NCBI GenBank assembly: GCA_963763775.1
Contig: CAVXPZ010000003.1
Coordinates: 96,001-160,000 of the forward strand
Reading direction: 5' to 3'
Source: an uncultured Chloroflexia bacterium
GTDB lineage: Bacteria; Chloroflexota; Limnocylindria; Limnocylindrales; CSP1-4
DNA length: 64,000 bases
The notes under the pieces are model-generated. The model was not told the DNA's origin. It worked only from the letters and a program-made list of their open reading frames with translations, and searched no databases. The translations under genes were made by a program, and so were the position numbers. Positions 8,013 through 37,842 of the stretch are shown here, piece after piece. Position 1 is the stretch's first letter. Each line of letters starts with the position of its first letter.

Positions 8013-10145
8013 TCAAGCGGCCGCCTTCTGGTCGACCTTCTTGCCTCGGAAGGTCCCCGTCACGTGCGTGCGGCCATCGGCATCTCGCGTGTAGTGGAGC
8101 GTGTCGCTCCCGATCGTCACGTCGAGCGCGAACGTGCCAGCGTCGTCGTTGATCTCCCCGGTGCCGGTGACCGCCAGGTTCGGCGTGAACTCGCAGGCGT
8201 TCAGGCCGATCGTCGTGCCGGCGCTCGACGGCGTCAGCGTCATCGCCCCGCCGTAGTCGCAACCGGCCGCGATCGGCGTCTTGTCGAGGCGATAGGCGTA
8301 GTCGTCACTGTTGATGATCTGGTCGTCGATCGACCGCATCAGGGCGAGGGCGGTCCGGTAGTCGGTCGCGGCGAGCGCCGCGTTCCGCACGTACGTGTCC
8401 GCCACCTCGCCGACGCACGTCGTCACGCGGGCGGCGGGCGGCGTCCCGTCGGCGATGAGCGCGGTCATCTGGTCGTCCGGGCACGCGTTCCCCCAGGCGA
8501 AGATGACATGCGGGCCGCCGACGTCCTGGAAGAAGTACGCATCGTTCAGCCGGCTGAAGATCCGCATCCCGTTCGAGATCGGCGTCGCGGGGTCGGTCGT
8601 CGACGTGAGCACGACGACGGGGTACGGCGTGTCGGTCAGCGGCGCCGGACGGTCGTTCGTCGTCGGGGTGCTCGGCCAATAGAGGCAGGGCAGGTCGCCG
8701 TAGTAGGAGGTCGCGAGCCGCAGGTCGTTGACCCCGGCCTTCGCGGCACCGTCGATCCAGGCACTGAGCCTCGCATCGGCACTCGCCGGTCGTTGGGTAG
8801 AAGGCGTAGTCCTGGCACTCGACGGCGTAGTAGACCGCGTCCGACCAGGTCGGGTCCGGGACCGGCTGGAGCGTGTCCGGGTCGACGCTGAGGCTGTCGT
8901 AATAGAGCTTGGCGAGCGGCACGAAGTCGTCGTGCGACGCGGCCGCGATCGCGCGCTCGAGCAGGGCGCGCGCGCCGCGGCTGTAGAGGTAGTAGAAGCT
9001 GCCGTACTCGAGCGCGCTCTCCGTGAGCTGGCGCGGCTGGGTCGTGCCGTCCCCCATCGGATAGTCGAACGTGATCGGACCGCTCTGCGAGCCGCGCGGC
9101 CAGCGCGTCGTAGACGGCCAGGGCGTCACCGCCGCGGACGTCGCCCTTGCAGGTGGCCTCGGCCGTACACGCATCGAGCGTCGCGACGAGCGTGTCGGTC
9201 GCGCTCCGCGCGGCCTCGGTGTAGTACGTAGGCCCATCGACGGTGAGGTCGACCGCGCCGTCGAGATAGAGCGTCTGGATCCGGTCGGGATGGGCGGCCG
9301 CATAGGTCTGCACGTACTGCGTGCCGTAGCTCTCCCCGTAGAGCTCCAGCTTGTCAGCGCCCAGGTAGTCGCGGACGGCCTCGAGATCCTCGACCGCCTG
9401 CTTCGTGGCGTAGTAGGGCAGGTCGGCCGGCGCCACGCCGGACTCGGTGACGCAGTCCGTGGCGAACGTCTGGGCGTCCTTGGCGGCCTGGTCGCGCTCG
9501 GCGGGGACCTGCGGGCGGTAGGCCGACTGGTAGAACGCGGCCGCGGCCTTGACGCACTGGATCGGCTCGGACTGGCCCGTGCCGCGCTGGTCCATGAACA
9601 CGATGTCGTAGGCGTCGGTGATCGACTGCGCGTAGTAGCTCGTGTAGTCGTCCGCCGAGGCGATCCCGCGAGTAGCCCGGCCCGCCGGTGATGACGACGA
9701 ACGTGCCCTTCTTCTCCTTCGCGGCGCGCTTCACCGCGAATGTGACATCGACGGTGTCGCCGCCGGGGGCCGCGAAGTGGTCCTTCGGGACGCTCAGGGT
9801 GATGCACTCGAAGGCGCTGCCGTCCGGGCAGGGCTTCGTCCCGACGAACGTGTACGCCGTGTTCGTCGCGCCCGGGGAGGCGACCGGGCCCGAGGACGAC
9901 CCCGGCGACGCCGACGGAGCTGCCGAACCGGTGGCCGCCGATGCGGCGGGCGAGGCCGCCGCCGATGCCGAGGCGTCCGCCGATGCTGCCGCCGACGGCG
10001 CGCTGGAGGCACTCGCGGACGGCGAGCCGCTCGGCGGGATGCTCGTCGTGTAGGTCCACTTCGGTCCGGTGGTCCCGCACGCGGCGACGAGCACGGCGAG
10101 AAGGACCGCGGGGACGGCGAGGCGAAGCGGGTGACGTGACGTCAT
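8013..10145 (-). CDS. lipoprotein alpha/beta hydrolase (TAP-like peptidase), split by about 3 apparent sequencing frameshifts
   Basis: Lipobox LVAAC, Ser/Ala linker, TGGPG, DQRGTG, GESYG nucleophile, DPATP and GGPH in consecutive frames. Confidence 0.85.
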
Positions 10146-13402: not shown

Positions 13403-13732
13403 CTACAGGCGCTCGAAGCGCTCCACCGGCAGCACGAAGACCGTCGCGCCGCCCACTTCGACCTCGAGGGGATACGGCATGAAGAACTCGCCCGGCTCCA
13501 TGATCGGCGGCATCGGGTTGACCACCTGGGTCCGCGACGTGCAGTTCTCGCGGACGACGCCCATGACCTCGTCCACGTCGCCGTCCTCCACGCCGAGGAT
13601 GATCGTCGCGTTGGACTGCTTGAGGAATCCGCCCGAGCTGTGGAGCCGCGTCGCGCGGAACTCCTTCTCGAGCAGGGCGTCGACGAGGGTGCCCGCATCC
13701 TCGTGATGGACGATGGCGACGACGAGCTTCAT
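13403..13732 (-). CDS. darA: cyclic-di-AMP receptor, PII-like (DarA/PstA family)
   Basis: MKLVVAIVHHEDA...ATRLHSSGGFLKQSNAT...VEVGGATVFVLPVERF. Confidence 0.9.
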   Translation of the reverse strand: MKLVVAIVHHEDAGTLVDALLEKEFRATRLHSSGGFLKQSNATIILGVEDGDVDEVMGVVRENCTSRTQVVNPMPPIMEPGEFFMPYPLEVEVGGATVFVLPVERFERL

Positions 13733-13829
13733 CGCGCGGAGTATCGACGGCGCGACCGACCGCGGTCAACGCGCGGATGCGGGGTGTACGATGCCGGCTC
13801 CGACGACCGATGCGTGCAGGAGTCCCCCC

Positions 13830-14852
13830 GTGGCTGAAGACGGACCGTCCAGCGATCCCCGCGCGAGCCTCCCGGCGGCCATCGCCGCGGTCACGGATGC
13901 GAGCGACCTCGACGGCGCGCTCGCCGGCCTGCTCGCCGTCGCCGGGACCGCCCTTGCGCCGACGATGGGCGCCATCCTGATCGCCGACCCGGATCGCGCC
14001 GACCTCATCCTCGCGAGCTCGCTCGGCATGGACGCCGAAGGTGACGCCCGCCTGACCGCCTCGGTGGCCGATCCCGCCGATCCGTTCGCGGCCGCGGCAC
14101 GCGAGCGCGTCGCGACCTTCGACCGCGCAGCGACCACGCCGACCGGCGACGCGTTCGTCGGCGCCTATCTGCCGCTGCTGATCTCGCACGGCGGGGTCGA
14201 GGAAGCCCTCGGCACGATCGGCTTCGGCTGGCCGGCTCCGCACGAGGCGGGAGAAGCCGAGCGCGAGACCCTGACATCCCTGGCCGGCCTGGTGGCGCTG
14301 GCCGTGGACCGCGCGCGCGTGGCCGCGACAGCCGCGGAGCGGTCGGAGTGGTTCGAGCGCCTGGCGCACAGCGATGCGTTGACCGGTCTCGCCAACGAGC
14401 GGACCGTCGCCCGGGTCCTCGAGCTCGAGCTCGCCCGAGCCGGGCGGCAGGGCGGCGAGGTCTCGCTGGCGATGTTCGACGTGGACGACTTCCAGGCCAC
14501 GAACCGCGACGGCGGCCACGCGGCCGGCGATGACGTGCTGCGGCGGGTGGCGGCGGTCCTCGCGGAGTCGGTGCGGCTCGTCGACACGGTCGGACGCGTC
14601 GGCGGCGACGAGTTCGTGCTGATCGCCCCGGGCTCGGCCGGTCTGACGGTCGCCGAGCGCGTCAAGGCCGGCATCGCGCGCCTCCCGGCCGTGGCCGGTC
14701 GCGAGGTCTCCGTGTCGGTCGGTATCGCGCGGTTCCCGACCGACGGCGCGGACGCCGACTCGCTCATCGCGGCCGCCACGAGCGCCCTGGCACGCGCCAA
14801 GGCCGAGGGCCACGGCAGCATCGCCGAGACGGACGCCGTCACCGAGGGCTAA
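13830..14852 (+). CDS. GAF-GGDEF diguanylate cyclase
   Basis: DALTGLANER, FDVDDF, intact GGDEF, N-terminal GAF; AGGAG RBS before GTG. Confidence 0.9.
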   Translation: MAEDGPSSDPRASLPAAIAAVTDASDLDGALAGLLAVAGTALAPTMGAILIADPDRADLILASSLGMDAEGDARLTASVADPADPFAAAARERVATFDRAATTPTGDAFVGAYLPLLISHGGVEEALGTIGFGWPAPHEAGEAERETLTSLAGLVALAVDRARVAATAAERSEWFERLAHSDALTGLANERTVARVLELELARAGRQGGEVSLAMFDVDDFQATNRDGGHAAGDDVLRRVAAVLAESVRLVDTVGRVGGDEFVLIAPGSAGLTVAERVKAGIARLPAVAGREVSVSVGIARFPTDGADADSLIAAATSALARAKAEGHGSIAETDAVTEG

Positions 14853-14892: not shown

Positions 14893-15783
14893 TCATCCGG
14901 GAGCGGTCGCCGTCCCCGATGAGACGATCGGCAGCGTCGGCGTCGTCGCCCCGGCCGCGGGCTCGAGGGTCAGCGCGAGCACCATCCCGCCCTGGGGTGC
15001 CGGGCCCGCGGCCTGCAGCGACCCGGTCCCGGCACTCCCGACGTCGAAACTGCCGAGCGGCATCGGGACCCCGTCCGAGCCGATGGCCCACGCTTCGTAG
15101 ACCGACGTCCCCGTCGTCGGGGCAAGGTCGTGCATCGCCATCGTCACCTCGCCCGACGAGGCCACGGCCGCCACCCCGGCCGGCCCGGAACCGCCTTCGG
15201 TCGTGAGGACCGCGGTCAGCGCCCCTGGCTGCGCCGCCGCCGTGATGACCGCGGCGACATCCTGCTGGTACTGCTGGGCGGTGCTCACCTGGCCCTGGAG
15301 TGACAGGTTCCACGCGGCGAGCACCCCGATGACCAGCACCGCGGCGATCCGGACGGCCCAGGTCAACGGCGACGTGCGTCGCGACGGCCGGGTGCCGGGA
15401 ACAGGATCGGACGTGGGTGCCGGGAACGGGATCGGAGCGGCGGCGGACTCGGGCACTGCGCCAGGCGCGGGCACCGCGGCGGCCGGCGAGGAGGCGGTCG
15501 GCGCCACCGCAAGACCAGCCACCGGGACCGGCTCGAGATCGGTCGCCGCGGCCGCGAGGACACGGGCCTTCAGCCCGGCTGACGGCTCCATCTGCGGGAC
15601 GGACGCATCGAGCGCGGGCAGCACCGACCCGAGCTCCGCGATCTCCTCGTGGGCCTCGGGGCAGGTCGCGAGGTGCTCGCGGACCGCGGCCTCGTCGACG
15701 GGGTCGAGGGCACCCAGGACGAACGCGGCCGCGAGGTCGCGGACGTCGTCGCACGTCAGCTCGGGCGGCATCGGATCGCTCAC
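14893..15783 (-). CDS. anti-sigma factor, RskA-like
   Basis: N-terminal zinc-finger-like TCDDV...HLATC, TM helix, YEAWAI...LALTLEP-x-x-G-x-x-x-PT. Confidence 0.88.
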   Translation of the reverse strand: MSDPMPPELTCDDVRDLAAAFVLGALDPVDEAAVREHLATCPEAHEEIAELGSVLPALDASVPQMEPSAGLKARVLAAAATDLEPVPVAGLAVAPTASSPAAAVPAPGAVPESAAAPIPFPAPTSDPVPGTRPSRRTSPLTWAVRIAAVLVIGVLAAWNLSLQGQVSTAQQYQQDVAAVITAAAQPGALTAVLTTEGGSGPAGVAAVASSGEVTMAMHDLAPTTGTSVYEAWAIGSDGVPMPLGSFDVGSAGTGSLQAAGPAPQGGMVLALTLEPAAGATTPTLPIVSSGTATAPG

Positions 15784-16376
15784 GGCGTGTCCGCCTCGAG
15801 TTCGCGACGCATCGCGAGCAGGCCCAGCCGCATCCGGCTCTTGACGGTCCCGAGCGGCGTCCCGGTCCGCTCGGCCACCTCGGTCTGGGTCAGACCGCCG
15901 AAGTAGGCCATCTCGATCGCCTCGCGCTGCACGTCGGACAGGCTGGCCAGCGCGCGTCGGACGGCGTCCGCGTCGAGGTTCGCGGACACCTCGGCCCAGA
16001 CGTCGGGCAACCGGAATGCCGGCGGCGGGGCCTCCTCGTGCTCCGGGAGCTCGGTGGTCGGCTTGCGCCGACGGATCGCGTCGATCGCCCGGTGGTGGAC
16101 GATGGAGAGCAGCCAGGTCTTCACGCTGCCACGGCCCTCTACGTAGCGGGCGGCGTTGCGCCAAGCGCCGAGGAAGGCGTCCTGGACGACGTCCTCGGCA
16201 AGGCTTGCGTCATTCGTGATCCGGTAGGCGATCGAATAGGCCATCGTCTTGTATCGCTCATACAGTTCGTCGAGGGCGTCGAGCTCGTGCTCGGCCACCC
16301 TGGCGAGCACGGCTCGATCGGCGTCGTCCGCCGGCGTGGCGGTCCGCAGTCGAAGCGACCCCCGATCGTCGCTCAT
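15780..16376 (-). CDS. ECF RNA polymerase sigma factor (SigK-like)
   Basis: AEDVVQDAF, WLLSIVHHRAID, AYFGGLTQTEVA...PLGTVKSRMR. Confidence 0.93.
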   Translation of the reverse strand: MSDDRGSLRLRTATPADDADRAVLARVAEHELDALDELYERYKTMAYSIAYRITNDASLAEDVVQDAFLGAWRNAARYVEGRGSVKTWLLSIVHHRAIDAIRRRKPTTELPEHEEAPPPAFRLPDVWAEVSANLDADAVRRALASLSDVQREAIEMAYFGGLTQTEVAERTGTPLGTVKSRMRLGLLAMRRELEADTP

Positions 16377-17062
16377 GTGCTGGTGCGCAGCACGCGCGGT
16401 TTCGGTTCATCGACCTGGAGCACCCGGTCAACGGCGGCCGCGACATCCGATGCCACGGCGTCCGGTGATCGCGTCGCATCGACGGTCGCGAACCGGCTCG
16501 GTGACGCCGCCGCGAGCGCCAGGAACCCCTCCCGGACCCGCTCGTGGAAGGCGAGGTCGAATTCCGCCTCGAACCGCGTCAGGTCATCTGGGGCCTTCCG
16601 GGCCAGACCGATCTCGACCGGCACGTCCAGCAGGATGGTGAGGTCGGGCTGGAGGCCGTCGGTCGCGGCCGCTTCAAGGGCTCGCAGCCGGTCCAGCGGG
16701 ACCCCGGCACCATAGCCCTGGTAGGCGATCGTCGAGTCGGCGAACCGCGCGCACACGATCGTCCGACCTGCGGCCAACGCCGGACGGATCACCTCGACGA
16801 CGAGCTGGCGACGCGCCGCGTCGAACAGGAAGGCGTCCGTCAACGGGTCCGCCCGAGTCCCGGCGCCGGTCCGCGCGAGAAGCAACTCGCGGAGCCGCTC
16901 ACCCAGCCAGGTCCCGCCGGGCTCCCGCGTCGAGTGGACGTCGTGACCGATCGACTCGAGGTACGAGACCAACCGGGCCGCCTGCGTGGTCTTGCCGGCT
17001 CCCTCGGGCCCTTCCATCGTGATGAACCAGCCGCGCCGGGCCGGTCCGTCGGGACGTGTCAC
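16373..17062 (-). CDS. tmk: thymidylate kinase
   Basis: FITMEGPEGAGKTTQ, TREPGGT, STIAYQGYG. Confidence 0.95.
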   Translation of the reverse strand: MTRPDGPARRGWFITMEGPEGAGKTTQAARLVSYLESIGHDVHSTREPGGTWLGERLRELLLARTGAGTRADPLTDAFLFDAARRQLVVEVIRPALAAGRTIVCARFADSTIAYQGYGAGVPLDRLRALEAAATDGLQPDLTILLDVPVEIGLARKAPDDLTRFEAEFDLAFHERVREGFLALAAASPSRFATVDATRSPDAVASDVAAAVDRVLQVDEPKPRVLRTST

Positions 17063-24581: not shown

Positions 24582-24731
24582 ATGGCACCGGGAACATCGA
24601 TCGATCTCTGGATCGCGGACGCCGGCTACCTGGTCGCATTGGGATCGGTCGACGTCGGTCCCGACCAGCGCAGCTCCATCCAGGTCACCGCCATCAACGA
24701 CCCGAAGAACGTCGTCAAGCGACCGTCCTAG
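24582..24731 (+). pseudogene. probable orphan C-terminal gene fragment
   Basis: SIDLWIADAGYLVA...SIQVTAINDPKNVVKRPS* reads as coding sequence with no convincing 5' part. Confidence 0.45.
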
Positions 24732-27598
24732 GACGCCGCGAGCATCCAGATCCCGGGATCCGGGTCGGCCGGGTCGCCGCCGACCTCCGCGAACGCCGCC
24801 ACCGCGCGGCGGAGATGGTCGCGTGACTCAGGCTCGCGGGCGGCCGCGTGGAGCATGTCCGCCAGGTGGTTCTCGACGGCCGCCTCCAGATGGCGGTCCC
24901 CGATCCGACGGCAGGTCGCCAGGGCGGTCTCACCACGGGCCAGGGCACCATCGATGTCACCCTCCGCGGCGTCTGCCATCGCGAGCCCGACGAGCGCCGA
25001 GATCCCGGCGATCGGGTCCGGGTCTTCGGCGGCCGCGGCCAGGGCGAGGTCGAGGGACCGACGCGCGGCAGCGGTGTCGCCTCGATCGAGCTCGGTCAGG
25101 CCGATGCTCCGGTGCGCGGCACCGATCGAGACGGTATCGCCCGCGGCCGTCGCGTCGGCGAGAGCCGCCCGGGCCGCCGTCGCCGCGCCGTCGATGTCGC
25201 CGGTGCGCCGTCGGACCAGCGCTCGATCGACCAGCATCCGGGCTCGGAGCCCACGGTCATCGGCCGCCGCGAGGCCGGCCTCGAGATATCGGTCTGCGGC
25301 GGTCAGGTCGCCGCGTCGGAAGTGCGCCCTGGCGAGGGACAGCTCCAACGGCGGCAATTCGGCCGGCGAGGCCAGCGCGGCGGCCGACTCCAGGGCCGCG
25401 ATGGCACCGGCATAGTCGCCCAGCCGCGTCCGAAGCGCCCCGATCGCCGCGTACAGCCCGACGACATCCGGGTGACCGAGGGCCACGGCCGCCGAGTAGT
25501 GGCTGATGGCATCGGCATTCGCGAACAAGCCGGCGGCGCGGTCCCCGGCCTCGCGGAACGCCTCGGCGGCATCGGCGTCGCGGCCGGCGTCCCGCTCGTG
25601 CTGGGCGATCTGGACCAGACGGCCCAGGTCGTCGCGACCGACGCCCCCAAGGTCCATGCGGAGCGCTTCCGCGATCCGGCGGTGCAGCAGCCGGCGGCGG
25701 GCCAGGCTGGTCGACTCGTCCGCGAGGTCGCGAAGCGCGGCGTGCGCGAAGTCGTAGCGGATCCCCAGGCGGTTCGGCGACGTCGTGGACGGCGCGGGCG
25801 GTGAGGTCGCCGCCACGGACCGGGCGCGGGGCTCGGCAAGCTCGCGGATCAGGCCCCGCCGCAGGAGTTCGTCGAGGGCCTGGATGGTCTCGTCCTCGGA
25901 CCGACCGCTCGCGTGCCTGACGGTCGCGAGGTCGAACGACCGCCCGATCGCGGCCGCGGCGGCGAGCATCTGTTCGGCGACGCCGTCGACCGACGCCAGC
26001 CGCTGACGCAGCACGGCCCGCACGCCGTCGGGCATCCCGTCGCCTGGCGCCGCGCCGCTGGCGAGGACCTCGACGACGTAGAGCGGCAATCCTTCGGACG
26101 CGGCGACCAGTGGGTCGACGAACGATCGCGCCGGGGCCGACACGCCCGGTCGCCGCGACGACCAGGGCCTCGACATCGTCGCGGTCGAGCCGTTCGAGGT
26201 CGACCGTCGTCACGCGCGGCAGCGCCTCGACCTGACGGGCGAACGCGCGAGCGGCGGCGTCGAGCTCCTCGTGGCGCCACGTCAGCACCAGGACGAGCGG
26301 CCGATCGGCCAGGCGGCGCGCCAGGTAGGCGAGGGCCTCGAGGGATCCGGCGTCGACCCACTGGACGTCGTCGACCCAGACGATCCCCGGCGCGGCACCA
26401 CTTGACGGCGGCCGCGAGCGCCGCCGCGATCGCGGCGACCAGGCGGGCATGCGCACCGGGGCCGTCGACATCGGTCCCGCGTCCGGCCCCATCGATCGTC
26501 GGCAGGAGCCGATGGAGGTCGGCAAGGACCGGTGCGTCGAGCCGGCGGATCCGTGCGAGCGCGGCCGGGTCGGCCTGACCGGCGCGAAGCAGCTCGACGA
26601 TCGGACCGTAGGCGATCGCCTGCTCGGCGGCGTGCGCGCGGGCGGCGAGGACCGTCGCTCCGGCGGCCCGCGCCGCGGCCACGAACGTCTCGGCCAGGCG
26701 AGTCTTGCCGATCCCGGCCTCGCCGGAGAGGACCACGACCCGGCCGTCCGGAGTCGCGCCGGCGTGGGCGTCGGCAAGCATGGCCAGGGGACCGTCGCGG
26801 CCGACCATCGGCAGACCGCCGTGGACGACGCCGGCCGCGACGTCACGAGGAGCCGGCATCGGCCGGGACGGCATCGCGGATCGCCTCGTATCGCGCCGTC
26901 GTCTCGGGCAGCGGCGCGACGCCGAGCTCGCGTTCGAGCGTCGCGACGCAGATCCGGTACTGGCGCATCGCGGCGGCACGGTCGCCGGTGGCGGCGTAGA
27001 GATCCATGAGGCGCACGTGCGCCCCTTCGTCCAGCGGGTCGAGGTCCACGCGATGCGCGGCCGCCGCGACCGCACCGGGCAGGTCCCCTGCCGCCTCGAG
27101 CGTCGCCGACAGCCGGTCCAGCACCGCGTTCACGGTCCGTTCGGCCGCGATCGCGCGGGCGGCTCGCCAGTCGTCGAAGTCCGGGCTGTCACGGAGCGTG
27201 AACCCGGCGAGGAACGGGCCCCGCGCCAGCGCGGCCGCGCGCTGGAGATCCGCGAGGTCCGGGGAGCGCGCCAGCGTCTCGAGGTCCTGCACATCGATGC
27301 GGACGCGGTCGCGGACCAGATCGACCCTCGATCGATCGACGAGGATCGCGACGTCGCCGACCGCGGCCCGCAAGGCCGACAGCGTGCGCCGAAGCGCCCC
27401 GCGCGCGGACGTGTCGTCCGCATCCGGCCACAGGAGGGCGGCGAGCTCCTCGCGAGCGTACGGGCGCTGGTCGGCCGCGAGGACGGCGAGGATCGCGACG
27501 GCCTTCCGGGTGTCGACGACGAGTGGGACGCCGGACACGAGGATCTCTGGCGGGCCGAGCAGGCGGATGTCGAGCCGCGGTGGCTCTCGCTTCGTCAC
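24728..27598 (-). CDS. SARP/BTAD-AAA(STAND)-TPR transcriptional regulator, frameshifted into about 3 ORFs
   Basis: IRLLGPP wHTH, LARGPFLAG...DPLDE BTAD, Walker A GEAGIGKT, Walker B VDDVQW, GLPLYV, YDFAH, TPR-like C terminus. Confidence 0.88.
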
Positions 27599-27760: not shown

Positions 27761-28970
27761 ATGAGCCACCGGCGGACCCTGGCCCTCGTCCTGTGGGTGA
27801 TGATCGTGACCGCGGCGGCGATCGCGACGCTCCTCGTGATCGCGACGCGCGACACGCCCGTTCCGACGTCGTGGGGATTTCGCGGCGCATCCGAGGCGTT
27901 CGCCGTCGCCTGCGGGACGGTCGGGGCGATCGTCGGCCTGCGGCGTCCCGAGAACTCGATCGGCTGGCTGTTCGTGGCGATCGGCCTCTGCTTCGCCGGT
28001 CAGGCGCTGATCAACGAGTACGTCGTCGCCAGCATCGTTCGTCGTCGCCGGCGGCCTGCCCGCCACGACGTTCCTCGCCTGGACGCTGACGTGGTCGTGG
28101 GTTCCCGCGCTCGCGATCTCGCTGATCTTCCTGCCTCTCCTGTTCCCGACGGGGCACCTGCTCTCGCCGAGGTGGCGAACCGTCGCGGTCCTTGGCGTCA
28201 TCGCCACCGTCGCCTTCGCCGCCGCCGCGGCGTTCATCCCAGGGCCGATCCAGCAGGCGGTCTTCGTCGACAATCCCTACGCCGGTCACGGGTTGGACAA
28301 GTCGACGTATACCAACGTCATCTTCGGGCCGACCTCGCTCGTCCTGGTGACCGCGATCGGACTCAGCATCGGCTCGCTGGTCATCCGGTTCCGGCGGTCG
28401 TCCACCGAGACGCGTCAGCAGATCAAGTGGTTCGCTCTGGCCGCGTTGGTCGCCGCCACGGCCTTCACCCTCTACGTCGCCGTCTCGTTCCTGGAACTGA
28501 CGTCGGCGACGAAGGCGCTCGAGATCGCGTCCGTCCTGTCCCTGATCGCCCTGCCGACGGCGGCGGGCCTGGCCATCCTCCGCTATCGCCTCTACGACAT
28601 CGACCGCATCATCAGCCGGACCCTCGGGTACATCGCCCTCACGGCCATCCTGTTCGGGATGTTCGCGCTCGTGACGGTGGCGCTCGAAGGGCTCATCAGC
28701 CCGATCACCGGGGGCGACTCGCTCGCGGTCGCGGCCTCGACGCTCCTGGTCGCCGCGCTCGTCGCGCCGATCCGCTCGCGGGTGCAGCGGGTCGTCGATC
28801 GCCGGTTCGACCGGGCACGGTACGACACCGAGCTGACCGCGGTCGCGTTCGGCGAGCGTCTGCGCGAGCAGGTCGACATGGCCGCGCTCACCGACGACCT
28901 GACGACCACCGTCCGGGCTGCGGTGGCGCCGCGGTCGCTCGGTCTGTGGTTGCGGACCGTCGATCGATGA
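27761..28970 (+). CDS. polytopic membrane sensor-like protein, paralog 1 (frameshift near 28040)
   Basis: RPENSIGWL, LFPTG-x-L-x-SPRWR, RQQIKW, RYRLYDIDRIISRT, DRRFDRARYD, ends APRSLGLWLRTVDR. Confidence 0.85.
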
Positions 28971-30139
28971 CGGACGAGCGGCTGCGGCGCGCGGCCACCG
29001 GACTGGCCGTGGCATCGATCGCGGCGACCCTCGTCGGGATCGCCCTCACGATCGCCGCGTCCACGTTCGATCTCGCGACGGGGCCGTCGTTGATCGTGGC
29101 TGGCGTCGTCTACGCCGCCATCGGTGCTCGGATCGTCCGACGGCAGCCCAGGAACCCGGTCGGATGGCTTCTGCTCGGGAGTGGCCTCAGCTTCGCCATC
29201 ACGCTCGTGCTCGACGATTACGCGTCGCTGGCGGTCGCGACGGACCCATCGCTGTTCGCGGCGTCGTTCGCGGCGTGGCTGGGCGCCTGGACGTGGATCC
29301 CTGGCGCCGCGATGTTCCTGGTCTTCGTGCCCCTCGTCTTTCCCGACGGCCGCGTCCTGTCGCGGCGATGGTGGTGGTTCGCGGTCGTCGTGGCCGTCAT
29401 GGTCACGCTGGACACCCTCGCGCATGCCGCCGCCGGCTGGCCGCACGTCGGCGACCTCGCGTATCTCACGGGCACGTTCAACGCCGGCAGCGAACCGGGT
29501 CTCATGGGCGTGGCTGCCGACCAGCTCGATTCCTGGTTCGTCCTGGCCATGGTGTCGGTCGTTTCGATCGTGGTCCGGTTCCGCCGGTCGAGCGGCACGG
29601 AGCGGCTGCAGGTCCGCTGGTTCGCCCTGGCGATCGCGATCGCGGCCGTCGCGATCCTGATCGAGGGGGCGATCTTCGAGGACCCGGGCGGTCCGCTGCT
29701 CCTCATCGCGATCACGGTCATCCCGATCTCGATCGGCGTCGCCATGCTCCGCTACCGGTTGTACGACCTCGACCGCCTCGTGTCTCGGACGATCGCGTAT
29801 GGCCTGGTGACCGGGGCGCTCGTCGCGGCCTACGCCGCCCTCATCCTGTTGCTCGAGGGCCCGCTCAGCTCGCTGACGGGTGGCGACACGGTCGCCGTCG
29901 CCCTGTCCACGCTGATCGTCGCGGCGATGTTCCAGCCGATCCTTCGACGAGTCCGGCGACTCGTCGACAGCCGATTCGACCGGGCTCGATATGACGGTGA
30001 GCGCACGGCGTCCGCGTTCGCGGGACGGATGCGCGGCGCGGCGGACCTTGAGGCGGTCAGCGCCGATCTGGGCTCGACGGTGCGTGGAGCGATGGTGCCC
30101 TCTGGTCTCGGGTTGTGGCTCCGCGGGTCGCACCGATGA
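28967..30139 (+). CDS. polytopic membrane sensor-like protein, paralog 2
   Basis: ATGA overlap; PRNPVGWL, FPDGR, RLQVRW, RYRLYDLDRLVSRT, ends VPSGLGLWLRGSHR. Confidence 0.88.
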   Translation: MTDERLRRAATGLAVASIAATLVGIALTIAASTFDLATGPSLIVAGVVYAAIGARIVRRQPRNPVGWLLLGSGLSFAITLVLDDYASLAVATDPSLFAASFAAWLGAWTWIPGAAMFLVFVPLVFPDGRVLSRRWWWFAVVVAVMVTLDTLAHAAAGWPHVGDLAYLTGTFNAGSEPGLMGVAADQLDSWFVLAMVSVVSIVVRFRRSSGTERLQVRWFALAIAIAAVAILIEGAIFEDPGGPLLLIAITVIPISIGVAMLRYRLYDLDRLVSRTIAYGLVTGALVAAYAALILLLEGPLSSLTGGDTVAVALSTLIVAAMFQPILRRVRRLVDSRFDRARYDGERTASAFAGRMRGAADLEAVSADLGSTVRGAMVPSGLGLWLRGSHR

Positions 30140-30225
30140 CCGCGGCGACACGCGCGGGCGTGACCGTCAACGAGACGATCTCGCCCTCGAGCGTGGGCGT
30201 GTGGATCCGTGGGGCCGGGCATTGA
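30136..30225 (+). other. 29-aa mini-ORF encoding only the family C-terminal tail
   Basis: MTAATRAGVTVNETISPSSVGVWIRGAGH*; overlaps the previous stop (ATGA) and the next start (TTGA). Confidence 0.65.
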
Positions 30226-31387
30226 TCGGGCGGTGGCTCCTCCGGCTCGCGGCCATCGCCTCGATCGGTCTGTCCATCGCGACGGTCGTGGCCGATGCGG
30301 CGCTCGGCTGGTCGACCGGCTGGTTCGACACGCTGTACGCGGCGATCATCGTCGTCTTCGCCGTGGTCGGCTGGCTGATCGCCGAGCGGCGGCCGGGCAA
30401 CGCCGTCGGACCCTTGCTGCTGCTGTTCGCGCTGCCGTTCGCGATCTACCTGCCCTCGAACCTGTACCTCCAGCTCGCGGCGTCGCCGCCCGGGGGAGCG
30501 TACGCGGCGCTGTTCAACACGGTCCTCGACGCGCCGATGTTCGTCATCCTGGCGCTCGTCCTGATCGTGTTCCCGGACGGCCGGCTCCCGTCGCCTCGCT
30601 GGCGGCCGGCGATCGCGCTCGGCGTCATCGGCATCGTGCTGCCCGATCCTCGGCTACACCCTGGACCCGAACCCGATGCCCATCTACCCCGCCTACACGA
30701 GTCCGTTGGGGATCGATGGCTTCCCTGGGCTGGGGCTCGTCTATCTCGGCTACGCGATCATGTTGCTCCTGCTCGGCGGCGCCGCCGTCGCCCTGACCTC
30801 TCGGTGGCGACGCGGCGATCCGATCGAGCGGACCCAGATCAAGTGGGTCGTTGCCGCTGCCGTGGTGACGCTGTTCGTCGAGATCATCAACGTCGCGACG
30901 TTCCGGGCGGACGAGCCGAATGCCCTGATCACCATCCTCGGCAGCGCGGCGATCGCGCTGGTCCCGGCCGCCATCGGCGTGGCCATCCTCCGATACCGAC
31001 TGTACGAGATCGACCGGATCATCAGCCGGACCATCGCGTATGCCGTGCTCACCGGCATCCTGGCCGCCGTGTTCGCCGGCGCGATCCTGCTGCTGCAGGG
31101 TGCGCTCTCGACGTTCACGCAGGGCCAGACCGTCGCGGTCGCGGCGTCGACGCTCGCGGTCTTCGCGCTGTTCCAGCCGCTCCGTCGGCGAGTCCAGTCC
31201 GTCGTCGACCATCGCTTCGACCGTGCCCGGTACGACGCTGAGCGGACCGCCGTCGCCTTCTCGGTCCGACTGCGCCACGAGGTCGATATGGAGACCGTGA
31301 CGTCGGACCTCGCGAGTACCACGCGGCTGACCGTCGCGCCGTCGTCCCTCGACCATCTGGATCCGACAGAAGGAGGTCGCCCGATGA
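30222..31387 (+). CDS. polytopic membrane sensor-like protein, paralog 3 (frameshifts near 30643 and 31354)
   Basis: RPGNAVGPL, FPDGRLPSPRWR, RTQIKW, RYRLYEIDRIISRT; corrected end APSSLDIWIRQKEVAR*. Confidence 0.82.
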
Positions 31388-32567
31388 CGCGAGCTCGCGC
31401 CGCCTGGGTCGTCGCGGTCGTCGCGATGCTCGCGTACGCCGCAGGGGCCATCCTCGACGCCTACACCGACCCCGTCGCGGTGCTGACGTTCGGTGTCGCC
31501 ATGGCGTCGTTCCTCGTGGTCGGCGCGATGATCACCGGACGCGTCCCGGACAACCGGATCGGACCGCTGTTCATGCTGGCCGGGACCATCCTGGCCGTCA
31601 GCGCCGTCACCGCGGCCTACGGTGACATCGGCTTGGCCCAAGATCCGCCGTGGCCGGGGTCGATCCTCGCCCTCGCGATCACGAACATCACCTTCATCTA
31701 CCCGATCATCATCGTGCTGATCTTCGTGCCGTTGGTCTTCCCGGACGGACACCTCCCGTCGCCTCGTTTCCGCTGGGTCGTGTGGCTCGCGATGGCGGCC
31801 CTCGCGGCGACCGCGGTGAACGACCTGTTCCGGACCCCGCTCCTCGGGGCCACCGACATCCCGAACCCGATGCGGGTCGAGTCGCTCCAGCCGCTCCTCG
31901 ACGTCCTGAACACCCTGGTCTCCCTGTCCTCGATCATCGGATTCGGCGGCGCCGCCGCGGCCGTGGTCGTCCGCTACCGTCGTGGCACACCCGTCGTGCG
32001 TCAGCAGACCAAGTGGCTGATGGCGGTGGCGGGCGTCGCCGCGGTCGCGTTCCCGTTGTCGTTCCTCCTCCCGGTCTTCCTCCTCGAGCTCCAACCGCTG
32101 GCCGATGTCTTCTTCCTCATCGGGACCCTGGCGCTGGTCGCGCTGCCGTGGGCCATCACGATCGCCGTCCTGCGCTACCGCCTCTTCGAGATCGACCGCC
32201 TCGTCAGCCGGACCATCTCGTATGCGCTCGTCAGCGCCGTCCTGATCGCGGTCTACGCGTGCGGCGATCCTGCTCGCTCTCGTCGGTCCTCTCGACGTTC
32301 GCCCAGGGCCAGACCGTGGCGGTCGCGGCCTCGACGCTGGTCGTCTTCGCGCTCTTCCAGCCGATCCGGCGACGCGTCCAGCGGGCCGTCGACCGCCGGT
32401 TCGACCGAGCCCGCTACGACGCCGAGCGCGATCGCCGTCGCCTTCTCCGGACGCCTCCGGAACGAGACCGACATGGCGACGGTGACGACCGACCTCGTCC
32501 GGACGGCGAGCGACCGATGGCGCCGGCGACGCTGTCCGGATCTGGCTGCTCGAGGCGGCGGTCGTGA
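31384..32567 (+). CDS. polytopic membrane sensor-like protein, paralog 4 (several frameshifts at 32260-32550)
   Basis: AAGGAGG RBS; PDNRIGPL, FPDGHLPSPRFR, RQQTKW, RYRLFEIDRLVSRT, DRRFDRARYD. Confidence 0.82.
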
Positions 32568-32583
32568 CGATGACCGGTCCGTT

Positions 32584-32626
32584 GCCCATCGCCGTAACGA
32601 TTCCCGGACGCACGCGAACCTAGGGT
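32584..32626 (+). promoter_or_regulatory. internal promoter: CGTAACG-N8-ACG motif plus TAGGGT -10-like box
   Basis: GCCCATCGCCGTAACGATTCCCGGACG, then TAGGGT at 32621-32626, 9 nt before ATG 32636. Confidence 0.55.
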
Positions 32627-32635
32627 GACCGCGAG

Positions 32636-34258
32636 ATGACCGAATTGACCCGTCCCATCCGCCGCCTCCTCGGCCGTCGCGACGCCGTCACGGACGAGAC
32701 GGCGGCCGTGCCCTCGGAGCCGACCGTGGCCGCCGCCCGAACCCCGGACGATCCGGCCATCGCGGTCGACATCCCCGAGTCCGACCCGCTCCTCGCCTAC
32801 CTCCAGACCGCCCCCGGGCCGGTCGAGATCGCCAGGCTCGAGCTCGATTCGCCGGCGGTCCGCGCGATGCGCGAGGCCGGCGTGGCGCTCGTCGTCCCGC
32901 TCGTGTCGCAGGGCGAGCTCATCGGGACGCTCAACCTCGGGCCGCGGCTGTCCGAGCAGGACTATTCCACGGACGACCGACGCCTCCTGACCACGCTCGC
33001 CGCGCAGGCGGCACCGGCGATCCGCGTCGCGCAGCTCGTCCGCGAGCAGGCCGCCGAGGCCGCCGAGCGCGAGCGCCTCGAGCAGGAGATGCGCGTCGCG
33101 ACCCTGATCCAGCAGCAGTTCCTGCCGCGCGAGCTCCCGCACCTCGCCCAATGGCAGATCGCGGCCTACTACGGTCCGGCCCGCGCGGTCGGCGGCGACT
33201 TCTACGACTTCATCGAGATGCCCGGCGGCCGGATCGGGATCGCGGTCGGCGACGTCACCGACAAGGGCGTGCCCGCCGCGCTGGTGATGGCGCGGACCCA
33301 CTCCGTGCTGCGCGCGGAGGCGTCGCGGTCCGACTCGCCTGGCGTGATCCTCGCGCGGGCCAACGACCTGCTCGTCCCGGAGATGCCGGCCCGGATGTTC
33401 GTCACGTGCCTGTTCGCCATCCTGGAACCGGAGACCGGACGGATCGTGCTGGCGAACGCGGGACACAACCTCCCGTACGTCCGGACCGACGCCGGGGTCA
33501 TCGAGCTGCGCGCGACGGGGATGCCCCTCGGATTGATGCCCGGGATCGTCTACGAGGAGACCGAAGGGGTCATCGATCCCGGGAGCAACGTCCTGCTCTA
33601 CTCCGACGGGCTCGTCGAGGCACACGACCCGCAGAGCCAGATGTACGGGTTCCCGCGCCTCCGGGAGGCCATGGCCGTCGACGACGCCGGGAGCGAGCTG
33701 CTCGACCGGCTCCTCGACGACCTGCACCGATTCACCGGCGCAGCGTGGGAGCAGGAAGACGACATCACGCTCGTCACCCTGCGGCGCGCGTCGGGCGTGG
33801 CCCAGCACGACGCGGACCCGTCGGTCCTCAGGACCTCGTTCTCCGTCCCGGGCGAGGAAGGCAACGAGCGACTCGCCATGGACCGCGTCGCGGCCGCCGT
33901 GGCCGATCTGGGCCTGCCTCCCGCGCGACTGGAGCGACTCAAGACCGCCGTGAGCGAGGCCGCGATGAACGCGATCGAGTACGGCAGCCAGGGCCAGCCC
34001 GACGTCCCGGTCGACATCGTCGTCGAGACCACGGCGGACGACGTCATCGTGCGCATCACCGACCGCGCCCTGTCCGGCGTCGTGCCCGCCGATGCCGAAG
34101 CCCCCGATATCGAGCGCAAGCTCGCCGGCGAGCAGAAGCCGCGCGGCTGGGGGCTCTTCCTGATCAAGAACATGGTGGATTCGATGGACGTGACCAGCGA
34201 TGGGTCGTCCCAGACGGTGACGCTCACGATGGCACGCAAGGAGCCCAGCGATGGATGA
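32636..34258 (+). CDS. partial GAF + SpoIIE/PP2C phosphatase + RsbW-like HATPase_c fusion
   Basis: VVPLVSQGELIGTLNLG (GAF), VGGDFYDF, GDVTDKG, NAGH, YSDGLVEA, DDIT; then VSEAAMNAIEYG and RGWGLFLI. Confidence 0.93.
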   Translation: MTELTRPIRRLLGRRDAVTDETAAVPSEPTVAAARTPDDPAIAVDIPESDPLLAYLQTAPGPVEIARLELDSPAVRAMREAGVALVVPLVSQGELIGTLNLGPRLSEQDYSTDDRRLLTTLAAQAAPAIRVAQLVREQAAEAAERERLEQEMRVATLIQQQFLPRELPHLAQWQIAAYYGPARAVGGDFYDFIEMPGGRIGIAVGDVTDKGVPAALVMARTHSVLRAEASRSDSPGVILARANDLLVPEMPARMFVTCLFAILEPETGRIVLANAGHNLPYVRTDAGVIELRATGMPLGLMPGIVYEETEGVIDPGSNVLLYSDGLVEAHDPQSQMYGFPRLREAMAVDDAGSELLDRLLDDLHRFTGAAWEQEDDITLVTLRRASGVAQHDADPSVLRTSFSVPGEEGNERLAMDRVAAAVADLGLPPARLERLKTAVSEAAMNAIEYGSQGQPDVPVDIVVETTADDVIVRITDRALSGVVPADAEAPDIERKLAGEQKPRGWGLFLIKNMVDSMDVTSDGSSQTVTLTMARKEPSDG

Positions 34259-34583
34259 CCGGACGTTCGGAGCGGACGTGACGGAGGTGCCCGACGAGGT
34301 GCGCGTGCGACTGAGCGGCGACCTGAACGGGCGGGCGGACGAGGCCATGGCCGGCGCCTACGCGAAGGTCGTCGACCTCGGCTCGCATCGGGTCAGCCTG
34401 GACTTCCACCAGGTCGGCTACATCAACAGCACCGGGATCGCCCTGGTCGTGCGGTTGCTCGCCGACGCCCGCCGAGACGGACGGACCGTCCGGGCGGTCG
34501 GCCTGAGCGACCACTACCGGGAGATCTTCCGGATCACCCGCCTGTCGGACTACATGGACATCGTGGAGGGAGACGCAGCATGA
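34251..34583 (+). CDS. STAS anti-anti-sigma factor
   Basis: LSGDL...LDF-x-x-VGYINSTGIA. Confidence 0.9.
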   Translation: MDDRTFGADVTEVPDEVRVRLSGDLNGRADEAMAGAYAKVVDLGSHRVSLDFHQVGYINSTGIALVVRLLADARRDGRTVRAVGLSDHYREIFRITRLSDYMDIVEGDAA

Positions 34584-34927
34584 GCGCGACCGTCATCGCG
34601 ACCGATCTGTCGGGGTCCACGGCGATCCTGCGGATCTCGGGCGACATCACCTCCGCGAGCGAGGGCGACCTGACGGCGGCCTACACCCGCGCGCTCGAGG
34701 CGGGTGCCACGACGGTCATCCTCGATTTCGCGGGCCTCGAGTACATGAACAGCGGTGGCATCGGCCTCCTCGTGACGCTCCTGGTCCGCGCCCAGCGCGG
34801 CGGCGTCAGCCTGATGGCGACCGGGCTCTCCGACCACTACCGGCAGATCTTCGAGCTCACTCGGCTCGACGAGGCGATCACGATCCACGACGACACCGCC
34901 GCGGCCGTGGCCGCCGCCGGTGCCTGA
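34580..34927 (+). CDS. STAS anti-anti-sigma factor
   Basis: ISGDI...LDFAGLEYMNSGGIG...IFELTRLD. Confidence 0.9.
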   Translation: MSATVIATDLSGSTAILRISGDITSASEGDLTAAYTRALEAGATTVILDFAGLEYMNSGGIGLLVTLLVRAQRGGVSLMATGLSDHYRQIFELTRLDEAITIHDDTAAAVAAAGA

Positions 34928-35698: not shown

Positions 35699-35711
35699 GG
35701 CGGCAAGACCC

Positions 35712-37146
35712 TTGAGCGGGCCGACGCTCGACGCGATCGTCGTCGGGGCCGGCCCGAACGGCCTGGCCGCCGCCATCACCCTGGCCCGGGCCGGCCGCTC
35801 GGTGCGGGTCTACGAGGCCGCCGACCGCGTCGGTGGCGGGACCCGGACCCAGGAGCTCACCCTCCCTGGTTTCCGCCATGACGTCTGCTCGACGATCCTG
35901 CCGCTGGCCCTCGCATCACCCTTCTTCCGGACGATGGACCTCGCCGCCCACGGCGTCGAGTTCGTCTACCCGGACGCGCCGTTCGCGCAGCCGCTGGACG
36001 GCGGCCGGGCGGTCGTGCTGGAGCGGTCGGTGGCCGCGACGGCGGTCGGCCTCGGTCCGCACGACGGCCGGGCATGGCGACGCCTGTTCGGTCCTCTGGT
36101 TCGCGCCGCGGAGGACCTCGGGGACGAACTGCTCCGGCCCGTCGTGCACGTGCCGCGACATCCGCTGCTGATGGCCCGGTTCGGGCTGCCAGCCCTTCGC
36201 TCGGTCGAGGGGCTGGCCCGCTCGGCGTTCCGGGACGAGCCCGCCCGCGCGCTGTTCGCGGGGGTCGCCGCCCACTCGATGCTCCGCCTCGATCGCCCGT
36301 TGAGTGCCTCGTTCGGCCTCGTCCTCGCGACGTATGCGCACGCGGTCGGCTGGCCGATGGTGCGCGGCGGGGCCGCGGCCGTCGGCGACGCGATGGCCGC
36401 CGAGCTCACGGCGCTCGGCGGCGAGATCGTGACGGACCAGCGCGTGACGTCCCTCGACGAGCTCCCCTCGACCCGCGCCACCCTCCTCGATCTCACGCCC
36501 CGGCAGGCGGCGGCCATCGCCGGACCACGGCTCACCGGTCGCGCCCGTCGGCGCGCCGAGCGGTTCCGCTACGGACCGGGGGTCTTCAAGGTCGACTGGG
36601 CCCTCGACGGGCCGGTGCCGTGGGCCGCCGAGGGGAGTCGCCGCGCCGCGACCGTCCACCTCGGCGGGACCCTCGACGAGATGGCCGCGTCCGAGGCGGA
36701 CGTCGCCGGCGGCCGGCACCCGGACCGCCCGTACGTCCTCTTCGTCCAGTACGCGCCGTGGGACCCGAGCCGCGCGCCCGGCGGGCACACGACCGCGTGG
36801 GCCTACTGCCACGTGCCGGCGGGATCCACGGTGGATATGACGGCCCGCATCGAGGCCCAGGTCGAGCGCTTCGCCCCCGGGTTCCGGGACCGCATCCTGG
36901 CCCGGTCCACCCACTCGCCCGTCGAGATGGAGGCGCACGACGCCAACTACATCGGCGGCGACATCAACGGCGGGATCCAGGACATCCGCCAGCTCGTGTT
37001 CCGGCCGTGGCCGGCCCTCGACCCGTATCGACTCGGTCCGGGCGGGCTGTTCCTGTGCTCGTCATCGACGCCGCCGGGCGGCGGCGTCCACGGGATGAGC
37101 GGGATGCTCGCCGCGCGTTCGGCCCTGCGCCACGAGCTAGCGCTGA
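35712..37146 (+). CDS. NAD(P)/FAD-dependent oxidoreductase, phytoene-desaturase-like family
   Basis: DAIVVGAGPNGLAAA, FRHDVCS, FLCSSSTPPGGGVHGM; true stop inferred at 37146 after removing a 1-nt insertion. Confidence 0.9.
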
Positions 37147-37842
37147 GCGCTCCTCGTCACCTCGGCCGACCTCACGGCGCAGCCAGACCCCGAGCAGCAG
37201 GGCCCCGATGGCGGGCACGACGGCCCACATGACGAAGACGAGGATGAGGATCGTCACCACCGCCTGGAGATCGGACAGGCTCTCCTGGAGGACGCCGCTC
37301 TTCAGGCGGTCCGCGAGCGAGCGCATCTGCGCCCCGAGGGCGGCCAGCGAGTCGTGGTTGGCCGTGAGCGCGTCGCGGTTGGCACTGAGCGATGTCGAGA
37401 CGCCGGAGAGCCGTTGGTCGAGGCCGTTGATGCTGGTCGCGATCGACCCCATCAGGTCGGCGGCCCGCGACAGCGGCTGCGCGCCGAGGATGTTGATGGA
37501 CCGGAACTGGTCCTGCAGCCCGGCGAGCTGCGGCTCGACCGTGGCGATCGTGGTCGCCGCCTGGTCGAGGGTCGTCGAGGCTCCCTCGATCGTCGTGGCG
37601 AACGACCCGGCCGTGTCGCTGGCGTCCTCGAGCGCGGTGGCGGTCTTGTCCAGGGTGGCCGTCAACTCGGCGATCGTGACCGTCGCGCGATCCGCGGCCG
37701 CGTTCATCCGCCCGTTGATCCAGAGCAGGCCGCCCAGCCCGATCACGGCGACCACGAGGCCGACGAGGCCGTAGACGACGAGCCACGAGCCGAGGCGTCC
37801 GAGTCCGCGGCGGAGTCCGAGCGGTCGTTTGTCGGTGGTCAC
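37137..37842 (-). CDS. hypothetical membrane protein (TM - coiled coil - TM)
   Basis: Two hydrophobic segments flank a heptad-rich region; TAGCAT box upstream; stop inferred at 37137. Confidence 0.75.

Follow-up and report, generated by a model that had tools for sequence, protein, structure and literature searches.

How could membrane proteins without a catalytic domain signal to a soluble enzyme whose regulatory domain seems to begin in its middle? This question is raised by positions 27,761 to 34,927 of the window analyzed here, a stretch of 64,000 nucleotides (positions 96,001 to 160,000 of contig CAVXPZ010000003.1, assembly GCA_963763775.1) from an uncultured Chloroflexia bacterium of the Limnocylindrales. 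Four paralogous genes for multi-transmembrane (TM) proteins, here called sensors P1 to P4, precede the gene of an effector without TM segments, which joins part of a GAF domain to a SpoIIE-type phosphatase and a kinase, and two genes for STAS proteins, just as a sequence-only reading of this DNA had laid them out. Judged from sequence comparison and structure models, we lean modestly towards the view that one GAF-like fold is divided between the membrane sensors and the soluble effector and that the two together form a signalling module. The parts of the locus are listed below (HMM, hidden Markov model; ORF, open reading frame; E, expectation value).

27761..28970, + strand: sensor paralog 1 (P1), multi-TM with a tail corresponding to GAF helix 1 and strand 1; one frame break at about 28041-28051, located with the family HMM
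28967..30139, + strand: sensor paralog 2 (P2), intact, 390 amino acids; single ORF with a cytoplasmic tail, residues 323-390
30136..30225, + strand: remnant mini-ORF of 29 codons; tail HMM positions 46-66 at 30154-30216, E 4.5e-6
30222..31387, + strand: sensor paralog 3 (P3), with a probable TTG start over the remnant's stop; two frame breaks
31384..32573, + strand: sensor paralog 4 (P4), with a disrupted tail end; three or more frame breaks; stop probably at the TGA within ATGA (32570-32573)
32570..32623, + strand: 17-codon mini-ORF after P4, ending with TAG (32621-32623) in the effector's frame, four codons ahead of the effector ATG
32636..34258, + strand: effector, 540 amino acids, without TM segments; Pfam order GAF(partial)-SpoIIE-HATPase_c_2
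34251..34583, + strand: STAS protein 1, probable effector substrate; STAS_2 E 2.8e-12, STAS E 8.7e-10; 8-base overlap with the effector end
34580..34927, + strand: STAS protein 2; STAS E 3.9e-16; ATGA overlap with STAS 1

The tandem genes had been described as overlapping by stop and start codons. Such overlaps (ATGA or TTGA) are indeed present at 28967, 30136, 30222, 31384, 32570 and 34580, but the P4 and effector genes do not overlap, and the two mini-ORFs had been missed. All six matches to the sensor family in this genome lie inside the array, which is therefore not a chance feature.

P2 has about ten hydrophobic segments, counted by eye, and a Pfam and NCBIfam scan of it returned no family. 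No catalytic family of Pfam is matched by the sensors, in keeping with the earlier statement that they carry no catalytic domain. The HisKA_7TM family (PF16927) matches the C-terminal half of P3 with 29.3 bits against a cut-off of 28.6 and P1 with 18.4 bits, P2 gives no match to it, and the nearest named Atlas cluster scores 0.83. Relatives of P2 number 2080 at E<=0.001 among 8000 proteins scored, and 108 of the 120 that were listed are 350-425 amino acids long. Across 81 family members the mean pairwise identity is 28% for residues 1-190, 58% for residues 251-322 and 57% for the tail (residues 323-390), a distribution that bears out the conserved C-terminal block recognized before. P378 is an invariant residue of the tail, as are W384 and R386 of strand 1 (P2 numbering), which do not vary in the 81 stand-alone sensors. 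At E<=0.001, 132 relatives of the sensor are longer, and most of those listed carry HisKA_3 and HATPase_c domains, often together with GAF families.

The domain boundaries of the effector can be read directly from its matches: a conserved N-terminal motif of 14 residues is followed by a variable linker, the remainder of a GAF domain (about residues 40-135), a helix (residues 112-162), a PP2C phosphatase and a kinase. The phosphatase (SpoIIE, PF07228) spans residues 196-384 with 169.1 bits against a cut-off of 25, covers profile positions 1-191 of 192 and contains the motifs GDVTDKG (205), DG (324) and DD (375), which we take to be the PP2C metal ligands. The RsbW-like kinase (HATPase_c_2, PF13581) spans residues 412-531 with 73.7 bits against a cut-off of 27.4; the effector stays below the NCBIfam equivalog cut-offs for TIGR01925 (SpoIIAB; 41 versus 135 bits) and NF003144 (RsbW; 29.2 versus 145 bits). 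The AlphaFold2 model of the effector has a mean predicted local distance difference test score (pLDDT) of 78.6. SpoIIE, RssB, SiaA and Rv1364c are among its structure matches, the best solved one being 3ke6, the RsbU and RsbW domains of Rv1364c (E 3.4e-21, 380 aligned columns). Both STAS proteins exceed the Pfam STAS cut-offs. For TIGR00377, with a cut-off of 53.45 bits, STAS 1 falls below it with 49.1 bits and STAS 2 lies above it with 60.9 bits; the former carries an N-S-T-G motif at residue 59 and the latter N-S-G-G at residue 57, the serine of this N-S-x-G motif presumably being the phospho-site.

GAF domains are built on a sheet of five or six antiparallel strands with helices at its sides. 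Of the respective profiles, the effector matches the C-terminal 40-60% alone (GAF positions 80-133 of 133, GAF_2 87-135 of 136, GAF_3 50-127 of 129). A complete GAF profile in one polypeptide, searched for with PF01590, PF13185 and PF13492, is not found in the effector, and the sensors match no GAF profile. In the AlphaFold2 model the N-terminal domain of the effector consists only of the helices H51-58, H73-81 and H112-162 and the strands E85-91 and E94-101; the two strands form a hairpin, the 51-residue helix 112-162 then leads into PP2C, and residues 1-39 have a pLDDT below 50. With only the C-terminal part of the profiles, two long strands and a disordered N terminus, the effector alone does not hold a complete GAF; a complete one would have undone the sequence-only reading. 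That its first 46 residues might be a degenerate form of helix 1 and strand 1 was considered and rejected on the grounds that they are modelled as disordered, that residues 15-36 are variable and that the tail HMM does not match them.

The counterpart of the absent portion lies at the end of the sensors. The sensor tail corresponds by alignment to positions 1-30 of the GAF profile in single-chain kinase relatives. PF01590 covers its profile from position 1-3 to 132 in four of eight fused kinases scanned, and in the fused proteins it starts at the segment that aligns with the ~30 C-terminal residues of stand-alone sensors. Moreover, when sensors, effectors and fusions are combined in a joint profile, its positions 353-483 match entire GAF domains of known structure (3ci6_A 11-163, 2k2n_A 42-171, 6oap_A 138-305), and these positions are sensor residues 340-390 followed by effector residues 50-135. 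The homology of both halves to a single GAF is thus directly visible in the profile alignments, in which the tail and the effector N terminus together make up one complete domain. That the tail represents the N-terminal helix and strand of the GAF which the effector lacks, as had been proposed, is well supported by alignment and prediction, namely profile coverage, fused kinases, AlphaFold2 models and solved GAFs. A literature search that was thin on subscription journals yielded no description of a naturally split GAF domain in signalling by bacteria, and no paper bearing directly on the sensor family.

Proteins that hold both parts in a single chain are likewise observed directly. The sequence-only reading had suggested that membrane-GAF-SpoIIE fusions occur in other Chloroflexota or Actinomycetota, and such fusions do exist: P0230 is one, and ten more are among the best 150 matches obtained with effector residues 1-150 in a search of 1.84 billion representatives (6666 matches at E<=0.001). 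The best 150 were sorted into classes by reading their rows. In 125 of them the match starts within the first ~170 residues, and in ten it lies 330-545 residues into proteins of 493-1008 amino acids. All ten contain a TM region, the tail, a variable loop, the GAF remainder and then PP2C or its start; P0460 and P0490 stop early in PP2C, and P0467 and P0486 carry the kinase too. The N-terminal region of the effector is 52-64% identical to the fused forms. P0230, a sensor relative with GAF_3 and SpoIIE matches, continues from the tail segment through a short loop into a homologue of effector residues ~40-160. The model of P0230 was computed from aligned sensors, effectors and fused kinases. In it, the helix (467-482) and the strand (487-491) that correspond to the tail are folded (pLDDT ~93) and are followed by a low-confidence loop and then by the effector-like helices, hairpin and long helix. 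The partner of this strand we infer rather than see. A structure search with this model listed 50 matches, all of them to PP2C and over residues 571-861 only. The best 150 matches also include 15 giant proteins of 1494-3952 amino acids (P0362, P0369, P0401, P0419, P0431 and ten others) with 7-18 tandem stretches that are ~30-37% identical to the GAF remainder of the effector.

The split and the gene order are kept among relatives, and this too is a direct observation. In all eight congeneric loci 3-6 sensors are followed by an effector orthologue, matched from residue 1 at 62-86% identity, and then by STAS 1 and STAS 2. Together these loci contain 33 full-length sensors, two half-length copies and one remnant, and their sensor ORFs stop 0-23 residues past the match. 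Since eight congeneric loci keep the sensors, the effector and the two STAS genes, we regard the design as genuine. Of 25 genomes of the genus that were searched, 17 encode an orthologue of the effector (best E at or below 1.9e-94), and all of these have sensors as well; six of the remaining eight have no sensor matches and two have weak ones. One congeneric locus (L072, genome G023) has an extra sensor gene at 8698-9708, downstream of the two STAS genes; hence sensors are not always upstream of the effector.

A scan of species genomes returned 549 stretches encoding a sensor relative, and our locus counts come from the best 79 loci, of which at least four are the same contigs as congeneric loci, so that the two sets are not independent. 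According to their titles, the 79 loci belong to Chloroflexota (Limnocylindria, Ktedonobacterales, Thermomicrobiales, Dehalococcoidia) and Actinomycetota (Rubrobacteraceae, Nocardioidaceae, Gaiellaceae, Thermoleophilia). They contain 257 full tails, 256 of which stop within 30 residues of the tail match, that is of the strand (median 3), and in none of the 79 loci do tail and effector share an ORF. The effector N-domain is encoded on the same strand in 38 loci, in 35 of them with 1-7 contiguous sensors directly upstream. In a class sample of 151 genomes (sensors at E<=1e-20, effector orthologues at E<=1e-60), sensors occur in 61 and the effector in 31, and 30 of these 31 also have sensors. When the unpublished genomes G102, G126, G139 and G145 are removed, the figures are 57 and 28 of 147, with both in 27 of the 28.

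These loci also bear on the question whether P4 and the effector are really one gene, parted by a sequencing error or expressed by read-through or frameshifting. The mini-ORF's TAG at 32621-32623 is in the effector's frame and precedes the effector ATG by only four codons, and indels abound in the P4 tail; both points speak for a single gene. Against this, in the 21 loci in which a sensor lies within 300 nucleotides of a full-length effector, the gap measures -6 to 121 nucleotides and the two share a frame in only 6, which is the chance rate, with 1-2 stops between them. None of the 79 loci has a single ORF, the effector orthologues begin at the same conserved Met-motif in 41 rows, and short-read assemblies show the same separation. 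We therefore consider a single gene highly improbable. Read-through or fusion of P4 with the effector was discarded as a candidate on the 79-locus ORF count and the 21-locus frame test, and the in-frame fusion that the sequence-only reading had named as a possible refutation is not what the 21 relatives' loci show.

In this N-terminal motif the effector residues M1, T5, P7, R9, R10, L11 and R14 are invariant in 41 rows, and residues 15-36 behind it are variable. Residues 1-14 (32636-32677) are thus nearly invariant, although the model shows them as disordered. With a Met-Thr start, Arg-Pro and richness in Arg and Leu, they are similar to the short N termini that several sensors have on the cytoplasmic side. 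An internal deletion in a fused gene may have given rise to the effector gene, and the motif may serve in docking.

How the two halves might work together can be outlined from these features. A stand-alone sensor of ~400 amino acids, with about ten TM segments and a variable N-terminal half, ends with a conserved juxtamembrane helix, GAF helix 1 and strand 1, and the effector carries the rest of the GAF-like domain and the long helix to PP2C and the RsbW-like kinase. The sensor tail would dock in trans and add its strand and helix to the incomplete domain of the effector. Docking would bring the effector to the membrane and set the conformation of the linker helix, the state of which would shift the balance of phosphatase and kinase on the two STAS proteins; this coupling follows the general linker mechanism laid out for PPM phosphatases (PMC12143880). 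Several sensor types would feed, or compete for, one effector. That several types can use it is suggested by the fact that every sensor carries the same kind of tail. In the tree, sensors fall into well-supported orthologous groups that are common to several species and shuffled in their array positions (P1, for instance, clusters with the sensors of three relatives with a support of 100/100). Sensors are 34-59% identical, and effector orthologues are 77-91% identical over their full length in 39 of 40 aligned rows. A conserved effector with diverse sensors in shuffled groups fits one socket with diversified inputs. We entertain, as a tentative picture that falls somewhat short of probable, that the receptors carry the first GAF helix and strand as a plug and the effector provides the socket, the completion of the fold being the signalling contact itself, that receptors of different specificity compete or alternate on the effector, and that arrays grow and shrink by duplication of the receptor-plus-plug unit alone.

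Several observations weigh against a fold that is completed between two chains. The single-chain P0230 domain has just four modelled strands (E487-491, E527-529, E550-556 and E559-566), a minimal GAF-like fold. Within the tail, helix 1 and strand 1 show a mean identity of 46%, compared with 69% for the juxtamembrane helix. Only P2 of the four sensors in this window is one open frame. In 41 of the 79 loci sensors occur with no effector in the DNA examined; 11 of these are singletons with at least 7.9 kb examined on each side, and the immediate neighbours of ten of the 11, which were scanned, are unrelated genes. Of the 61 sensor-positive genomes of the class sample, 31 lack an effector orthologue at E<=1e-60. 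Many sensor matches in effector-less genomes end near query residue 340, as in fused kinases; G058 and G076, in which no effector was found at this threshold, have tail-bearing matches. Sensors may hence also function far from the effector or in its absence, and their occurrence far from any effector allows for an effector-independent role. Other types of truncated-GAF effector beside orphan sensors were considered as well and dropped: in 17 loci without an effector, 43 neighbouring ORFs were scanned and none contains a SpoIIE, HisKA or GGDEF domain.

Such observations, namely the effector-less loci with their isolated singletons and the two genomes with tail-bearing sensors, would also be expected if sensors and effector had arisen from a fused gene by fission and no longer touched each other. 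The tail would then be a self-contained dimerization or regulatory element, or the sensors decoys, and the effector N-domain, which is modelled with a pLDDT of 73-86 without the tail, would dimerize PP2C on its own. This explanation is rather unlikely in our view. The break lies inside a fold and not between domains, and if the strand had no sheet to pair with, the invariance of W384 and R386 in 81 stand-alone sensors would be difficult to account for. Moreover, the gene order is tightly kept, with junctions of -6 to 121 nucleotides, and all but one of the 31 effector-positive genomes of the class sample have sensors. On this evidence we continue to favor a GAF-like fold shared between the chains.

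A different question is whether the array is intact in this genome. The four sensor genes of the sequence-only reading are all genuine paralogous multi-TM genes, but three of them are not single open frames. The family HMM divides P1 into 27767-28051 (frame 2) and 28041-28961 (frame 0), with one break. P3 consists of pieces at 30237-30641 (frame 0) and 30733-31350 (frame 1) with its last residues and the stop (31385-31387) in frame 2, so that it changes frame between 30641 and 30733 and again at ~31350, that is twice; an uninterrupted counterpart of P3 is found inside P0121. P4 comprises pieces at 31393-32259 (frame 1), 32277-32429 (frame 0) and 32431-32511 (frame 1), with at least three changes (~32259-32277, 32429-32431 and after 32511), and the last ~16 positions of its tail are unrecognizable. 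In the remnant at 30136-30225, a sensor-like start is fused straight to the last 21 tail residues, and it looks like an internally deleted paralog. This mini-ORF and that at 32570-32623, both at unit junctions, look like scars of unit deletion through recombination between repeats.

We consider it most likely, and hold with good confidence, that the frame breaks in P1, P3 and P4 are indel errors of the assembly, which comprises 3.30 Mb in 4 contigs at 87.31% completeness. A scan for same-strand frame switches without a nearby stop, using a Viterbi path over guanine-cytosine periodicity, returned 679 frameshift candidates genome-wide, or ~21 per 100 kb, as compared with 7 in the 94.5 kb of the eight relatives' loci (7.4 per 100 kb), of which 3 lie at the sensor-effector junction and are probably false. 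In view of this ~three-fold excess, gene calls across this assembly need checking for indels. The alternative is that the array is decaying in this genome, P1, P3 and P4 being true pseudogenes and only P2 serving the effector. At least six frame breaks within 4.9 kb and two deletion remnants would fit decay, as would the unbroken rpoB and rpoC (open frames of 1184 and 1534 amino acids), although at the excess rate these would escape by chance about one time in three, and the three breaks in the array that the scan can detect, with 1.0 expected (P=0.08). We nevertheless think decay unlikely, given the genome-wide rate of candidates and the state of the assembly. The adjoining regulator gene is broken as well, the end branches of P1, P3 and P4 in the tree (0.39, 0.28 and 0.51) are no longer than those of their orthologues, and a related short-read contig (~94% alike) that crosses two of the P4 breaks has 1-base indels exactly there, at 32429 and 32514. 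In three soil sequencing runs, only 0.05-0.07 of the sampled words are present, and no RNA run containing them is listed. Contigs from public runs are short; the pieces identical to the window cross no frame break, and the related contig is the only one to cross two.

The array is flanked by two further genes of interest.

24728..27598, - strand: AfsR/SARP-like regulator with BTAD, an ATPase-like part and TPR; BTAD at 26843-27598 (E 3.5e-17), TPR_12 in 24731-26209
35700..37232 (start approximate), + strand: flavin adenine dinucleotide (FAD)-dependent oxidoreductase, the downstream neighbour, with NAD_binding_8 and Amino_oxidase matches

The regulator gene is divergent from the sensor array and lies in pieces in several frames, with frameshift candidates at 26121 and 26383. 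Its neighbourhood was read at loci L065-L072 and L080. All eight congeneric loci (L065-L072) have a BTAD regulator upstream of the array, and it may be part of the same circuit. An AfsR/SARP-like BTAD-ATPase-TPR regulator also adjoins a six-sensor array in a Rubrobacteraceae metagenome-assembled genome, with no effector in the 17 kb examined. A homologue of the oxidoreductase stands beside the STAS genes in seven of the eight congeneric loci. Farther away, 11-14 kb upstream of the array, genes for a cyclic-di-AMP receptor, a GGDEF protein and an ECF-type sigma-70 family protein are found at 13406-14849 and 15783-16406.

The closest comparison is with the single-chain membrane-GAF-PP2C(-RsbW) and membrane-GAF-HisKA_3 proteins of Chloroflexota and Actinomycetota (for example P0467, P0486, P0230 and P0172). 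These likewise have a membrane domain, a juxtamembrane helix and a GAF-like domain, and the PP2C forms also the output domains. They are, however, one polypeptide. In the present array the sensor chain stops behind GAF strand 1, at a point where the fusions have a long, variable loop, and a single effector is preceded by 1-7 or more copies of the sensor part. Stressosome RsbR paralogues, and chemoreceptor arrays with CheA, are cases in which several paralogous sensors act on one signalling enzyme. They resemble the present array in their variable input parts and conserved output-facing part, but they dock as complete, folded domains, whereas the conserved part here is a fragment of a fold.

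Among PP2C regulators, Rv1364c of Mycobacterium tuberculosis (3ke6) is similar in joining PP2C and an RsbW-like kinase in one chain with a STAS partner; it is a single PAS-PP2C-RsbW-like kinase-STAS chain (PMC12143880). It thus has a complete cytosolic PAS domain and a fused STAS, in contrast to the partial GAF and the two separate STAS genes found here, where the input presumably comes from separate membrane proteins. A GAF-type N-terminal domain joined by a coiled-coil linker to a PPM phosphatase is a regulatory design described in the same source (PMC12143880). The RsbU, RsbP and RsbZ phosphatases share with the effector an N-terminal regulatory domain, a long helix, a PPM phosphatase and STAS substrates (PMC12143880). 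They differ in that their regulatory domain is whole and receives its input through a separate, complete protein, such as RsbT from the stressosome, whereas the input protein here would itself supply part of the regulatory fold. Also unlike systems of this type, the operon contains neither a sigma nor an anti-sigma gene; the sigma-70 family gene closest to it is that at 15783-16406, ~11 kb off and on the other strand. The kinase domain of the effector could itself be an anti-sigma factor.

If the halves do assemble, the locus would be a case of natural fragment complementation used for signal transfer and a simple genetic wiring of many inputs to one output, in which the receptor with its plug is duplicated and one socket is kept. 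Synthetic biology would then gain a split-domain pair that is ready for use, and the picture of linker-helix control by N-terminal sensors over PPM phosphatases (PMC12143880) would be extended. The sensor family is common in soil Chloroflexota and Actinomycetota, and the proposed mechanism, if true, would give a function to this large unannotated family, which has more than 2000 relatives at E<=0.001 and no Pfam or NCBIfam family of its own.

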